A DNA stretch of 64,000 nucleotides. It comes from Cenarchaeum sp. GTDB taxonomy: Archaea > Thermoproteota > Nitrososphaeria > Nitrososphaerales > Nitrosopumilaceae. The stretch covers positions 1,120,001 through 1,184,000 of the forward strand of contig CBDESU010000002.1 in NCBI GenBank assembly GCA_965242695.1, written 5' to 3'. Of this stretch, positions 43,957-47,300 are shown piece by piece. The notes beneath the pieces were generated by a model that was not told where the DNA came from, did no database searches, and worked only from the letters and a program-made list of their open reading frames with translations. The position numbers were made by a program, and so were the translations under genes. Position 1 is the stretch's first letter; each line of letters opens with the position of its first letter.

Positions 43957-44547
43957 GTGGAAGACGGGGGCGGCAACGGGGCCTCGCCGGGGATTGGATG
44001 CTCGGTGCCGAGGGGGTTCTCTAGGTACTTTGTGCTGAGCCTGCTCTCGTCCGAGGGGCCGTTGACGGGCAAGCAGATCATCGACCGCGCCGCCGAGAGC
44101 AGCGGCGGCATCTGGCGCCCCTCGCCGGGCCTCGTGTACCCGCTGCTCGGCCGCCTCCTTGACGACGGGCTCGTCTCGAGGGACGGAGGGGCGGACGGCG
44201 GGCAGGGGGGCCGCTACTCGGTCACCGACAGCGGCCGGGCTACGGCAGACGATGCGCGCAAGATCGCCGACGCCGTGCGCAGGCAGGTCGAGGTGATCCT
44301 GCGGCTTGCCGGGGCGGGCAGGTTTCTTGCGGCCGATGCGTTCGACCGCATCGCGTACGCCCTCTCCCCCGTGTGCACCGACCTGTCGCGGATGACCGAC
44401 GAGGAGGCGCGCAGCTATAGGGCGTTTTTGGAGTCGGAGATGTCGCGGGTCGACGCCGAGATGGCCGCCAGGCGCGGGTCGGAGGTTCCGGTCGGGCCTC
44501 CGGGCGGCGTGGCGGACGGCGGCAGTGGCCGCCGGGATGCGGCCTGA
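43957..44547 (+). CDS. PadR-family transcriptional regulator
   Basis: WRPSPGLVYPLLGRL...YSVTDSG. Confidence 0.88.
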   Translation: MEDGGGNGASPGIGCSVPRGFSRYFVLSLLSSEGPLTGKQIIDRAAESSGGIWRPSPGLVYPLLGRLLDDGLVSRDGGADGGQGGRYSVTDSGRATADDARKIADAVRRQVEVILRLAGAGRFLAADAFDRIAYALSPVCTDLSRMTDEEARSYRAFLESEMSRVDAEMAARRGSEVPVGPPGGVADGGSGRRDAA

Positions 44548-44592
44548 CGGCGCGTTCTGCCGCCGCCGCAGGGCGACGGGCAACGGGTTTTA

Positions 44593-44892
44593 TTGCGCAT
44601 CGCCCGCAAGCCCGCCGTGATCACCGGCAAGGATGCGGCGTCCGTGGCCGAGGCGCTGGCCGGTAACCTGCTCGGCGTGTCCAAGGATGCCGCCAACTTT
44701 AGGGGCCTCCCTGACTCGTTCTGGGGATACTTTGCGCGCGGCCACGACAGGAACGGCAAGTTCGGTGTCTTCGTGGCCTACTCGGAGGACGGGGCCGACA
44801 TCGACTCGCTCATAGACCAGTACGAAAAATGGGCCGCATCGAGGGGCGGATCGGCCGCAGGGGCGGCGGCTGGCCCGGACGGCCAGGCCTGA
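44593..44892 (+). CDS. Small hypothetical protein
   Basis: 99-aa ORF with typical codon usage. Confidence 0.65.
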   Translation: MRIARKPAVITGKDAASVAEALAGNLLGVSKDAANFRGLPDSFWGYFARGHDRNGKFGVFVAYSEDGADIDSLIDQYEKWAASRGGSAAGAAAGPDGQA

Positions 44893-45249: not shown

Positions 45250-45521
45250 AGCGCCCGTTCGTAGCATCCTAGGCAGACACCTACACTTTAGTGTGGATAA
45301 TTGACTCGATACACAGCAACGACGGATTTTGTGATGTGTGCTCCAAGGCAGTCGTCGTACCTGCCTTTTTTTGGAATGCCGATGGCCGCCGGATTGACCG
45401 AGCTCTCTAAACTTTTGATGAGCCGGCGGCAGTTCTTGAAGGCCGCCTTGTCTGATCTATGCTGTAGAAGGGTGTCCCTGGATTGCTTGCTAGGCCGGAC
45501 GATCTACCGCATCATCGCCAA
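45250..45521 (-). pseudogene. Inactivated copy of the RelE/YafQ-like toxin
   Basis: Reads LAMMR*IVRPSK...NPAAIGIPKKGRYDDCLGAHITKSVVAVYRVNYPH*; clearly paralogous to 45827-46117, with two stops. Confidence 0.85.
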
Positions 45522-45711
45522 ACTCTTGATCCAGATGCTGGAGATATTCTTTGATGGTGTAGGTCTTTCCTATGGGGCGGCCAGCTTCGCAGTCTGCGAT
45601 CATCTGTTCAATCTCTTTGCTGTATGGGAGATCGTTGTCCAGATCAGGCGACAGGCGCTCTTCCATGCTCAGAATGTGGACGGGATCTTCGGATGCATCG
45701 CTACCGGTCAA
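45490..45711 (-). CDS. Stand-alone antitoxin-like peptide (duplicate of the C-terminus of 46083-47138)
   Basis: PVHILSMEERLSPDLDNDLPYSKEIEQMIADCEAGRPIGKTYT is near-identical to the fused copy. Confidence 0.7.
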   Translation of the reverse strand: MTGSDASEDPVHILSMEERLSPDLDNDLPYSKEIEQMIADCEAGRPIGKTYTIKEYLQHLDQEFGDDAVDRPA

Positions 45712-45826: not shown

Positions 45827-46117
45827 TCAGCCGTCGCTTCCATACACCATCTTGTGATCGCCCATCTTCAGCAAATCGATCCTGTGTGCCGCATGGTCTA
45901 TGCGATAAACAACGACGACAGACTTTGTAATATGCGCGCCAATACAGCCGCTATACCTGCCCTTTTTCGGAATGCCCATGTTTGCAGGGTTGTCTAAATG
46001 TGGCAGTTCATCGACAAGGCGATGATAGTTGTTGGAGACCGCTTTGTCGGCCTTGTAGTATTGAAGGCTTTTGACGATCGACCTACTTTCCTGTATGGTC
46101 CACGGTACCAATGCCAA
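45827..46117 (-). CDS. RelE/YafQ/ParE-superfamily toxin
   Basis: 96 aa, basic; KKGRYSG...AHITKSVVVVYRID...IDLLKMGDHKMVY; overlaps the upstream gene. Confidence 0.8.
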   Translation of the reverse strand: MALVPWTIQESRSIVKSLQYYKADKAVSNNYHRLVDELPHLDNPANMGIPKKGRYSGCIGAHITKSVVVVYRIDHAAHRIDLLKMGDHKMVYGSDG

Positions 46118-47138
46118 GCTCCTCGAGATGCCGCATATATTCTTCAGCCGTGTAGGTTTTTCCGATGGGGCGACCGGCTTCGCAGTCTGCGATCATCTGC
46201 TCGATCTCTTCGCTGTATGGAAGATCGTTGTCGAGATCTGCAGACCTGCGCTCCTCCCTGCTCAGAATATGGACAGGCTCCTCGGCTACGGCCGCGGTGG
46301 CAGATGGATGCCCGTCCTTGCTTGTGTTTGAACCTTGGATGCCGACACCGCCGAATACCCAGCGGATGCCGACACCGTCCGTGGATATCTTTGCCGAGCG
46401 CTCTAGGTACTCCAGTATGCGGTCAAGCTTTACCGGGTCTATGTCCGCGGGCAGAGCCGCCATCAGCTCGGGCCTGCCGGCAATGCTGCCGCGATCGGAG
46501 ATTTGGCGTTCCACCTCCATGATCATGTCTAGATCAGGCGCAGAATGCTCGCGGGGGCTTGGCGCTCCGCTGCGCAGGCTGCCAAGCACACCCTGCTGCC
46601 CTGCGGCGGCGCCAGCGGCGCCGATCCTCTCCAGCTCGAAGGCCAGCGCTCCGGGGCGCGTGGGCGTGTCCTTGTAGCGGCGTGCAACGCATTCGACAAG
46701 GCCGCTGAACACTAGGCTTCCGCCATCCTTGACGAAGTACAGGACGCGGCTGCCGCTTTCCCGCGACCTTGCAAGCTTTAGGTTGCCTAGGATCATCTGA
46801 TCGGACCGCCCCTTGTAGTACCTGCCGTAGTATATGATGCGCCCGCCCTCCTCGGCATCGTCGTAGTCGCTGTGCACATTGCGGACCAGTATGATGTCGG
46901 ACGAAGTCGAGCTAGTGCGTATGCCGCCTCCCTTGGGGACGCCGAACCTCTCGCGCATCTGATCCTCGGTGAACATGTCACCCTGCTGAGGCAGGGGCGG
47001 CAGGGACTCTTCCGCGCGGCCTGGGCGCGGCCGGGCTGCGCCCGGGGGATCTCGATGCCGAGCAGTTCTTGCCTGTATCCCCGTGTGGCCACCATGCTTG
47101 GTAACCTGCCTCGCTATCGCTTCCACGTACCGCCGCAC
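46083..47138 (-). CDS. SRA/YDG-like domain + winged helix + antitoxin-like tail fusion
   Basis: GGGIR...YDD...IIYYG...DQMILGNLKL...VLYFVK...FSG...FELER; PDLDMIMEVE...ILEYLERSAKI...IRW; acidic tail with GKTYTAEEY; alternative start ATG at 46976. Confidence 0.7.
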   Translation of the reverse strand: MRRYVEAIARQVTKHGGHTGIQARTARHRDPPGAARPRPGRAEESLPPLPQQGDMFTEDQMRERFGVPKGGGIRTSSTSSDIILVRNVHSDYDDAEEGGRIIYYGRYYKGRSDQMILGNLKLARSRESGSRVLYFVKDGGSLVFSGLVECVARRYKDTPTRPGALAFELERIGAAGAAAGQQGVLGSLRSGAPSPREHSAPDLDMIMEVERQISDRGSIAGRPELMAALPADIDPVKLDRILEYLERSAKISTDGVGIRWVFGGVGIQGSNTSKDGHPSATAAVAEEPVHILSREERRSADLDNDLPYSEEIEQMIADCEAGRPIGKTYTAEEYMRHLEELGIGTVDHTGK

Positions 47139-47300
47139 TGCGCCCCGTATATGAACTTTGTATGCGGGATGGGCGCAGGCCTCGCCACTCGTGCATGCGG
47201 CGCGGCTGGGCCACGGCGCGCCTTGCGGCGCGAGTCTGGCACCGGGGCGGATGCCCTGTGCCCTGAAACACAGATTAACCGCAGGGCGCGCGGCGCGCCG

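Follow-up and report, generated by a model that had tools for sequence, protein, structure and literature searches.

A 64,000-nucleotide stretch of a genome assigned to Cenarchaeum sp. (GCA_965242695.1, contig CBDESU010000002.1, positions 1,120,001 to 1,184,000; hereafter the window) encodes on its minus strand a two-gene unit, in which a protein composed of an SRA-fold domain, a winged helix and an acidic C-terminal tail (46083..47126) is directly followed by a 96-residue protein resembling the YafQ and RelE toxins (45827..46117). We tentatively read this unit, with slightly less than even confidence, as a type II toxin-antitoxin operon with a multi-domain antitoxin, whose SRA-like part has been added as a sensor. 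The individual parts are known; their combination, a type II toxin-antitoxin system whose antitoxin bears the reader module of type IV restriction, is new. An earlier note, made from the DNA letters without database searches, knew of no description of this architecture, and our full-text literature searches likewise returned no published description of an SRA-antitoxin fusion (supplementary architecture tables lay outside their scope).

The longest open reading frame (ORF) of the fusion gene (46083..47138, minus strand, 351 residues from GTG 47138) carries all motifs that had been quoted for its N-terminal domain, namely GGGIR, YDD, IIYYG, DQMILGN, LYF and FEL, and its terminus reads GKTYTAEEYMRHLEELG... 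For the searches and the structure model a 297-residue form starting at ATG 46976 (P0001) was used, and residue numbers below refer to this form.

The SRA-fold and winged-helix domains

The AlphaFold2 model, built from a 44-sequence alignment, has a mean predicted local distance difference test score (pLDDT) of 69.2, with values of 66-86 over residues 1-120 (46617..46976, minus strand). The earlier note had seen an SRA-like domain in this part, and searches against solved structures agree. VIA-align superposes the model on the SRA domain of SUVH5 at Z 11.8 (root-mean-square deviation 3.4 Å, 123 aligned residues), on ScoMcrA at Z 11.3, on TagI at Z 11.0 and on KRYPTONITE at Z 10.8. Of the 25 PDB matches that Foldseek returns at E<=1e-3, those listed belong to SRA or SRA-like recognition domains, with LpnPI as the best (3.2e-6) and AspBHI, SUVH5, ScoMcrA, TagI and MspJI also among the matches listed. 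In the Atlas, the neighbours of residues 1-120 belong to ScoMcrA-like SRA, SRA, DUF3427 or AspBHI-N clusters, the nearest being ScoMcrA-like SRA clusters (top score 0.95, 203 of 256 features shared). The family PF26348, which the Atlas names SRA_ScoMcrA, is precomputed on 7 of 59 database homologues of the fusion protein, and Pfam SAD_SRA matches paralogues from the same genome at 2.4e-6 (27.8 bits) and 0.004 (17.4 bits), with a cut-off of 30.7. A 12-sequence profile of the domain gave seven matches in the PDB, including the SRA domain of SUVH9 (0.0075), ScoMcrA (0.4 and 0.77) and the SRA domain of SUVH5 (0.42); the PDB profile search with the whole protein returned nothing significant. The model and these profile links support an SRA fold for the N-terminal domain and its probable membership of the ScoMcrA-like SRA family.

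Within the domain, the residues of the fold core are 93-100% conserved. The GGIR motif (G17 91%, R20 93%), which we take by analogy with UHRF1 to be the thumb loop, and the DQ...N..L..S motif (Q60 98%, N65 95%, L68 and S71 100%) stand out in the alignment.

In related genomes the same domain family occurs in restriction-like settings. Within the class, one locus joins it to an HNH nuclease (L017, Pfam HNH 6.1e-11) and at another it follows a ResIII/DEAD helicase (L013), so that the description of the window protein as one in which an antitoxin replaces the nuclease is a fair one. Other settings within the class place the domain behind CxxC zinc-ribbon-like motifs, as judged by eye, or alone. 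In the fusion protein itself neither Pfam nor NCBIfam gives an HNH or PD-(D/E)xK match, and the fold searches barely sampled residues 211-297; residues 209-297 of the model consist of a disordered linker and short helices. An SRA-like paralogue elsewhere in the genome (C1:1915278-1917332, locus L011) has a different tail (SPPLTPEE...) and lies directly upstream of an HNH gene (Pfam HNH_2 3.5e-7); the two genes may together form a type IV system of split SRA/HNH composition.

The segment that had been called winged helix-turn-helix-like is a winged helix both in the model and in the fold searches. Residues 145-208 (46353..46544, minus strand) are modelled at pLDDT 83-89 with a helix-helix-helix-beta-beta topology, and VIA-align matches them at Z 8.4-9.5 (root-mean-square deviation 1.5-2 Å) to proteins that include Stn1, a Sulfolobus DNA-binding protein, Z-alpha domains, Rpa2 and MarR-type regulators. 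A PDB profile search with the winged helix alone gave no significant solved relative. DpnI is absent from the 50 best structural matches of this domain, and profile searches found no sequence link to the DpnI winged helix. Among viral structures, the best match is a 258-residue protein of Haloarcula hispanica pleomorphic virus 3 (HHPV3) annotated as 'ScoMcrA-like SRA domain-containing protein' (E 3.3e-8); the alignment comprises 207 columns and therefore spans both the SRA and the winged-helix parts.

Stand-alone homologues of the winged helix, 85-116 residues long, are present in 4 of 400 other genomes sampled from the phylum, all from other families (L023-L026). Each of the four genes is arranged tail-to-tail with a small gene of 83-111 residues; three of these small genes were scanned, one of which passes Pfam ParE_toxin (27.8 bits, cut-off 23), and by eye the others are similar to it. 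Such a convergent orientation of a winged-helix gene and a ParE/RelE-like gene, seen at all four loci, is unusual for a toxin-antitoxin pair. Compared by hhalign, the ParE-like neighbour at L026 and the window toxin family show no similarity (probability 0.2), and we do not assign them to one toxin family. For the stand-alone winged-helix loci we therefore claim no more than a superfamily context in common with the toxin of the window.

The toxin, the tail and the layout of the locus

The toxin gene (45827..46117, minus strand) has a TTG start that lies 35 nt ahead of the stop of the fusion gene on the same strand. The overlap of the two genes that the earlier note had described thus amounts to 35 nt, and homologues of the toxin begin with MA(L)PW at the same position. 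Its description as RelE/YafQ-like is echoed by sub-threshold profile matches, to NCBIfam TIGR00053 (1.3e-6, 29 bits, cut-off 87.25), NCBIfam RelE_StbE (1.9e-5, 25.0 bits, cut-off 27.9) and Pfam YafQ_toxin (2.6e-4, 21.7 bits, cut-off 30). The PHROG family 'RelE-like toxin' is matched over the full length at 1.2e-4, and a YafQ entry of the PDB gives a weak profile match (0.44). The protein retains all 31 invariant columns of a seven-sequence family alignment, which comprises the window toxin, five homologues and one paralogue. Its conserved residues H62, H78, D81 and H88-x3-Y92 are probably similar to the catalytic pattern of YafQ.

The tail (residues 233-297, 46086..46280, minus strand) is acidic, with an isoelectric point of 4.6 versus 9.3 for the basic toxin. 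It is the best-conserved part of the fusion protein (mean column conservation 0.82), and its helices are modelled at a modest pLDDT of 51-78. Neither the tail nor the free-standing 73-residue version described below has a match in Pfam, NCBIfam, PADLOC or PHROG. The PDB profile search found no known antitoxin, RelB and DinJ included, and in the Atlas residues 140-297 score at most 0.78.

Iterative searches of the six-frame ORFs of this genome found 14 tail-bearing and 11 toxin-like ORFs. A toxin homologue directly follows the tail in 6 of the 14, and because of this repeated gene adjacency we regard the tail as the toxin's partner module, in agreement with the earlier note; it would presumably be the part that neutralises the toxin. 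Four toxin ORFs have no tail gene upstream. The tail occurs free, behind the SRA-like domain alone, behind the SRA-like domain and winged helix, and behind an unrelated N-terminal domain, and the same antitoxin-toxin pair recurs as a paralogue on the other contig. Outside this genome the sole hint of synteny is a shared entry, in that the longest contig given for the fusion homologue P0032 and that given for the toxin homologue P0092 each measure 318,710 bp.

Two further kinds of fusion were observed in the genome. At C1:1982908-1983828 and C2:72831-73631 the same tail is carried by an unrelated N-terminal domain of about 150 residues with a GPYS motif, which looks similar to the Panacea/DUF4065 antitoxin domain (Pfam gave no match at E<=0.1); the copy at C2:72831-73631 is followed by a toxin homologue that is seemingly split into two frames. 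The SRA-like domain, for its part, is joined to a HicB-like/UPF0150 domain at C1:1303085-1303942 (L003; Pfam HicB_lk_antitox 9e-9) and to one that is HicB-like by eye at C2:48544-49731 (L005).

Downstream of the toxin gene lies a tandem duplicate of the tail, a free-standing gene of 73 residues (45490..45711, minus strand). At the DNA level, positions 45530-45692 repeat positions 46123-46285 with 82% identity, and the protein alignment agrees. The earlier note had described this free tail as standing in front of a second copy of the toxin; the free tail is confirmed, the second toxin is not. What follows (45291..45503, minus strand) has no ATG, GTG or TTG start, its frame stops at ...VYRVNYPH*, and the last ~21 residues are gone, including the family-invariant H78, D81 and the GDHK motif. 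As judged from these features, it is a truncated remnant of the tandem duplication. Just downstream of this remnant, window positions 43957-44892 on the plus strand hold a 196-residue ORF, by eye a PadR-type winged helix-turn-helix regulator, and then a 99-residue ORF.

The fusion gene itself likely starts at GTG 47126, giving a protein of 347 residues whose translation would begin MEAIARQVTKHGG... We prefer this start because the N-termini of homologues read MEAxxxQV and because a TATA-like box, TTCATATA (47148..47155, minus strand), sits upstream of it. The box lies about 26 nt ahead of this GTG, and with the spacing expected for archaeal promoters this distance would fit a leaderless transcript. 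In metagenome homologues a conserved SLPPLPQxGxxFTEDQ precedes the internal methionine encoded by ATG 46976 (M55 of the longest ORF), which fits a start further upstream. The protein accordingly has, besides the three parts originally named (SRA-like domain, winged helix and acidic tail), a fourth one, an N-terminal extension of about 50 residues (46977..47126, minus strand) that lies outside the structure model. The extension is rich in Arg, Ala, Gly and Pro, with a conserved LPPLPQxG at its end (alignment columns 85-140), and in the form MEAxxxQV...SLPPLPQxG it is common to many homologues; paralogues retain P-x-x-G-E/D-x-F immediately ahead of the SRA-like domain.

Distribution, tree and selection

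The fusion is not a singleton. We collected 43 near-full-length homologues (coverage 79-100%, identity 51-95%), together with more, shorter variants lacking either the winged helix or the SRA-like domain. When the SRA-like domain was run against all 1.84 billion representatives, only 33 clusters were obtained at E<=1e-3, most of which are rich in Ala, Arg and Gly, as are the proteins of the window. Within the class, the domain is present in 8 of 201 genomes, including the window genome with its 13 copies, and it is absent from both other genomes of the same genus. A tblastn search of P0001 against a phage collection gave no match, and the fusion alignment returned no related loci from genome and metagenome contigs.

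A maximum-likelihood tree was computed for 88 SRA-like domains. Those with antitoxin-type C-termini, 73 in number, fall on one side of a branch supported by an ultrafast bootstrap of 90 and an approximate likelihood-ratio test value of 88, and recovered in 91% of 200 bootstrap trees; four fragmentary or frameshifted rows had been placed in the antitoxin group by similarity, so the grouping is partly circular. Within the antitoxin-fused group at least five tail types have been swapped, and in a quick tree the changes number six for the tail found here, two for the HicB-like type, three for 'GEYIAR' and two for 'ETLEIL'. We read this pattern as the sensor domain having been recruited once to antitoxin-like proteins, with modules being shuffled afterwards.

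Mean column conservation is 0.71 for the SRA-like domain and 0.79 for the winged helix, compared to 0.53 and 0.48 for the linkers. The Nei-Gojobori ratio of nonsynonymous to synonymous substitution (dN/dS) is 0.18 between the fused and the free tail (71 codons, with dS about 1.06 and hence near saturation), and a comparison of the window gene with its paralogue on the other contig gives 0.25 over the SRA-like domain and 0.24 over the full gene. The earlier note had named a singleton fusion with no purifying selection as a finding against its case; these ratios support a fusion that is kept under such selection.

The genome that harbours these genes measures 3.89 Mb (C1 2,212,536 bp and C2 1,675,135 bp) with 67-68% GC. 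Genomes of the same family or genus measure 1.1-2.2 Mb (one 4.3 Mb), and the GC content of eight loci read from seven of them is 30-36%. The lineage may be very heterogeneous; otherwise its placement is open to question.

Relation to known systems and possible function

The closest known relatives of the SRA and winged-helix module come from haloarchaeal viruses. HHPV4I of Haloarcula hispanica pleomorphic virus 4, the only characterised protein with an SRA domain and a winged helix, is a modification-dependent endonuclease of SRA-winged helix-HNH composition, and an HHPV3 protein shares part of its sequence, including the SRA domain, without the HNH (PMC10101028). We infer that our HHPV3 structural match is this HNH-less protein. 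The window protein resembles the viral proteins in its archaeal setting and in having, from N to C, first an SRA variant and then a winged helix. It differs in sequence (about 19% identity) and, from HHPV4I, in bearing an antitoxin tail next to a separate RelE-like toxin instead of a C-terminal HNH. With the SRA-HNH type IV enzymes ScoMcrA/ScoA3IV and TagI it shares the SRA fold (Z 11.0-11.3), the PF26348 links and the HNH-fused relatives. It departs from them in having no detected nuclease domain and a less conserved pocket, and its output would be translation arrest via the toxin rather than DNA cleavage. The antitoxin-first overlapping operon, the small basic toxin and the acidic C-terminal segment recall RelBE and DinJ-YafQ, whereas the antitoxin here has no ribbon-helix-helix and no RelB or DinJ match, has the SRA-like domain and winged helix instead, and is paired with a toxin of sub-threshold scores.

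In the EVE-(PIN)-GNAT proteins, a PUA-like modified-base reader takes part in predicted toxin-antitoxin systems (Bell et al., 2020, PMC7641849). There, the EVE reader is carried by the GNAT or PIN toxin and is proposed to target it, while in the window the SRA-like domain is on the antitoxin. A PUA-like sensor also controls the growth-arresting effector of the PUA-Cal-HAD abortive infection system, where it is reported to detect methylated mononucleotides released from the host chromosome (bioRxiv 10.64898/2026.01.15.699771). That bacterial system is described there as acting by filament-dependent deoxynucleotide depletion without a toxin-antitoxin pair, and its sensor belongs to another PUA subfamily. 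Neither the word SRA nor the word PUA occurs in the available part of a 2025 survey of RelE/ParE defence toxins, which does describe a parallel case, in which a DUF262 protein, a type IV sensor without nuclease, lies beside a toxin of the BECR fold (PMC11980606).

Several observations weigh against a toxin-antitoxin operon with a sensor-bearing antitoxin. The toxin family matches, though mutually consistent, all lie below curated cut-offs, and the fusion protein itself has no match in the local Pfam or NCBIfam collections. The earlier note had proposed to look for the same fusion next to relE in other genomes; it was found in none of 200 other genomes of the class (N-domain profile, architectures of the matches read) and in none of 400 other genomes sampled from the phylum (P0001 as query). 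Eight of the 14 tail ORFs do not directly precede a toxin homologue, a downstream toxin is detected for only 3 of the 13 SRA-like proteins of this genome, leaving 10 without, and no HicA (PF07927) occurs anywhere in the genome for the two HicB-like fusions. Such gaps would be expected if there were no working toxin-antitoxin pair, and if the SRA-winged helix-tail proteins were orphan antitoxin-like regulators or anti-addiction factors from a decaying duplicated module, of which the adjoining duplicate is already broken. We consider decay improbable, however, given that the window toxin ORF is intact and keeps every invariant column of its family, that its overlap with the antitoxin gene is of the classical kind and that the same pair is present as a paralogue on the other contig. 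Other points touch on sensing and defence. The locus is flanked by housekeeping genes with no defence island, as judged by eye from the ORF list, and PADLOC gave no match there. The host genome has three PF00145 C5-cytosine methyltransferase matches; its own DNA therefore probably carries 5-methylcytosine, and a reader of this base would meet self DNA. This would suit an ordinary autoregulated pair without sensing or defence, in which the SRA-like domain and winged helix form the DNA-binding end of the antitoxin, for operator binding or chromosome tethering, in place of a ribbon-helix-helix, helix-turn-helix or AbrB domain. Type II antitoxins normally combine a DNA-binding domain with a neutralising tail, the winged helix is a generic DNA-binding fold, and the methylation probable for the host would allow constitutive binding of self DNA by an SRA domain. 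Yet the winged helix alone would suffice for operator binding, stand-alone winged-helix proteins adjoin ParE/RelE-like genes elsewhere without an SRA domain, and in this genome free tail genes adjoin toxins with neither SRA-like domain nor winged helix. Moreover, the SRA-like domain is under purifying selection and has moved onto at least five tails, and it therefore suits an added input domain better than an operator-specific binder. We hold an ordinary pair to be rather unlikely.

The remaining points against a sensor concern the base pocket, and they would be explained if the SRA-like domain had degenerated into a scaffold with no ligand, serving for instance dimerisation, as has been proposed for HHPV4I, and if the winged helix read any modification as it does in DpnI and HHPV4I. 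In the UHRF1/TagI pattern, the flipped-base pocket is lined by a pair of aromatic walls at a spacing of 12 residues, with a carboxylate at +3 (PMC6212794). Mapped through the hidden Markov model alignment, the carboxylate corresponds to D40 (70% D among orthologues) and the second wall to Y49 (57% Y), while the first wall falls on D37, one position ahead of a Tyr (Y38, 64%). Pocket positions are thus 57-70% conserved. A diversifying specificity could likewise produce pocket residues that vary while the scaffold stays conserved. The viral relative adds weight, since the match to the HHPV3 SRA-winged helix protein covers two domains, and since the HHPV4I study reports that the enzyme still cleaves and binds Gm6ATC-methylated DNA specifically when its SRA domain is removed but no longer does so in mutants of the winged helix, that the winged helix reads Gm6ATC in a DpnI-like manner through K197, R199 and Q200, and that no binding of cytosine-modified DNA was detected, the SRA domain being judged likely inactive by the authors (PMC10101028). 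Against a mere scaffold stand the high conservation of the GGIR and DQ...N..L..S motifs (91-100%), the existence of members with SRA-like domain and tail but without the winged helix (P0045, P0047 and C2:50058-50729), and the lack of DpnI among the 50 best winged-helix matches and of any sequence link found to its winged helix. We judge this explanation unlikely, more so than an ordinary pair and less so than decay. As to the modification state of the host, palindromic 4-mers have observed/expected ratios of 0.84-1.55, with no clear avoidance indicating a methylation or restriction motif. The three PF00145 matches lie within ~65 kb on contig C1:286803-352348, which could be a restriction-modification or mobile-element cluster.

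A toxin-antitoxin operon whose antitoxin has gained a sensor would work as follows. The 96-residue YafQ/RelE-like protein would be the toxin, presumably a ribosome-dependent mRNA endonuclease, and the acidic C-terminal tail of the upstream protein would hold it inactive. That upstream protein carries a module that is otherwise found on modification-dependent (type IV) restriction nucleases. Its winged helix most likely supplies DNA binding, including binding to the operator of the operon, and its SRA-like domain most likely makes toxin release depend on the state of modified nucleic acid, by way of how stable the antitoxin is, where it is located or which conformation it takes. The input might be modified invader DNA bound by the domain, tethering to the host's own methylated DNA, or methylated nucleotides freed by chromosome degradation, as in PUA-Cal-HAD. 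The gene layout, the folds, the conservation and the recurring adjacency of tail and toxin are observed; neutralisation by the tail, a ligand of the SRA-like domain and a link to defence, including the release of the toxin by modified viral DNA that the earlier note had suggested, are inferred. In its broadest form the proposal is that this lineage has turned the sensor half of type IV restriction, SRA and winged helix, into a plug-in input for antitoxins, yielding combinatorial modification-gated switches in which modified invader DNA or released methylated nucleotides would free a RelE-type toxin and abort the infection; this is speculative and in our view somewhat unlikely.

If true, it would amount to restriction-style sensing with a translational instead of a nucleolytic output. 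Modification-dependent sensing, as in type IV restriction, and toxin-antitoxin growth arrest are as a rule distinct defence logics, and the combination brings them together. Should the two domains serve only as an operator binder, they would still represent the first SRA-type DNA-binding domain that we could find on an antitoxin, which would be of local interest only. Should they gate the antitoxin, they would provide a clear natural case of an accessory antitoxin domain acting as the receptor of a trigger, and, as tails have been exchanged within the lineage itself, domain swaps would make this gating easy to dissect. Such gating would also offer a testable role for the SRA variant of the HHPV3 and HHPV4 proteins, which is called 'inactive' and has had no explanation to date.

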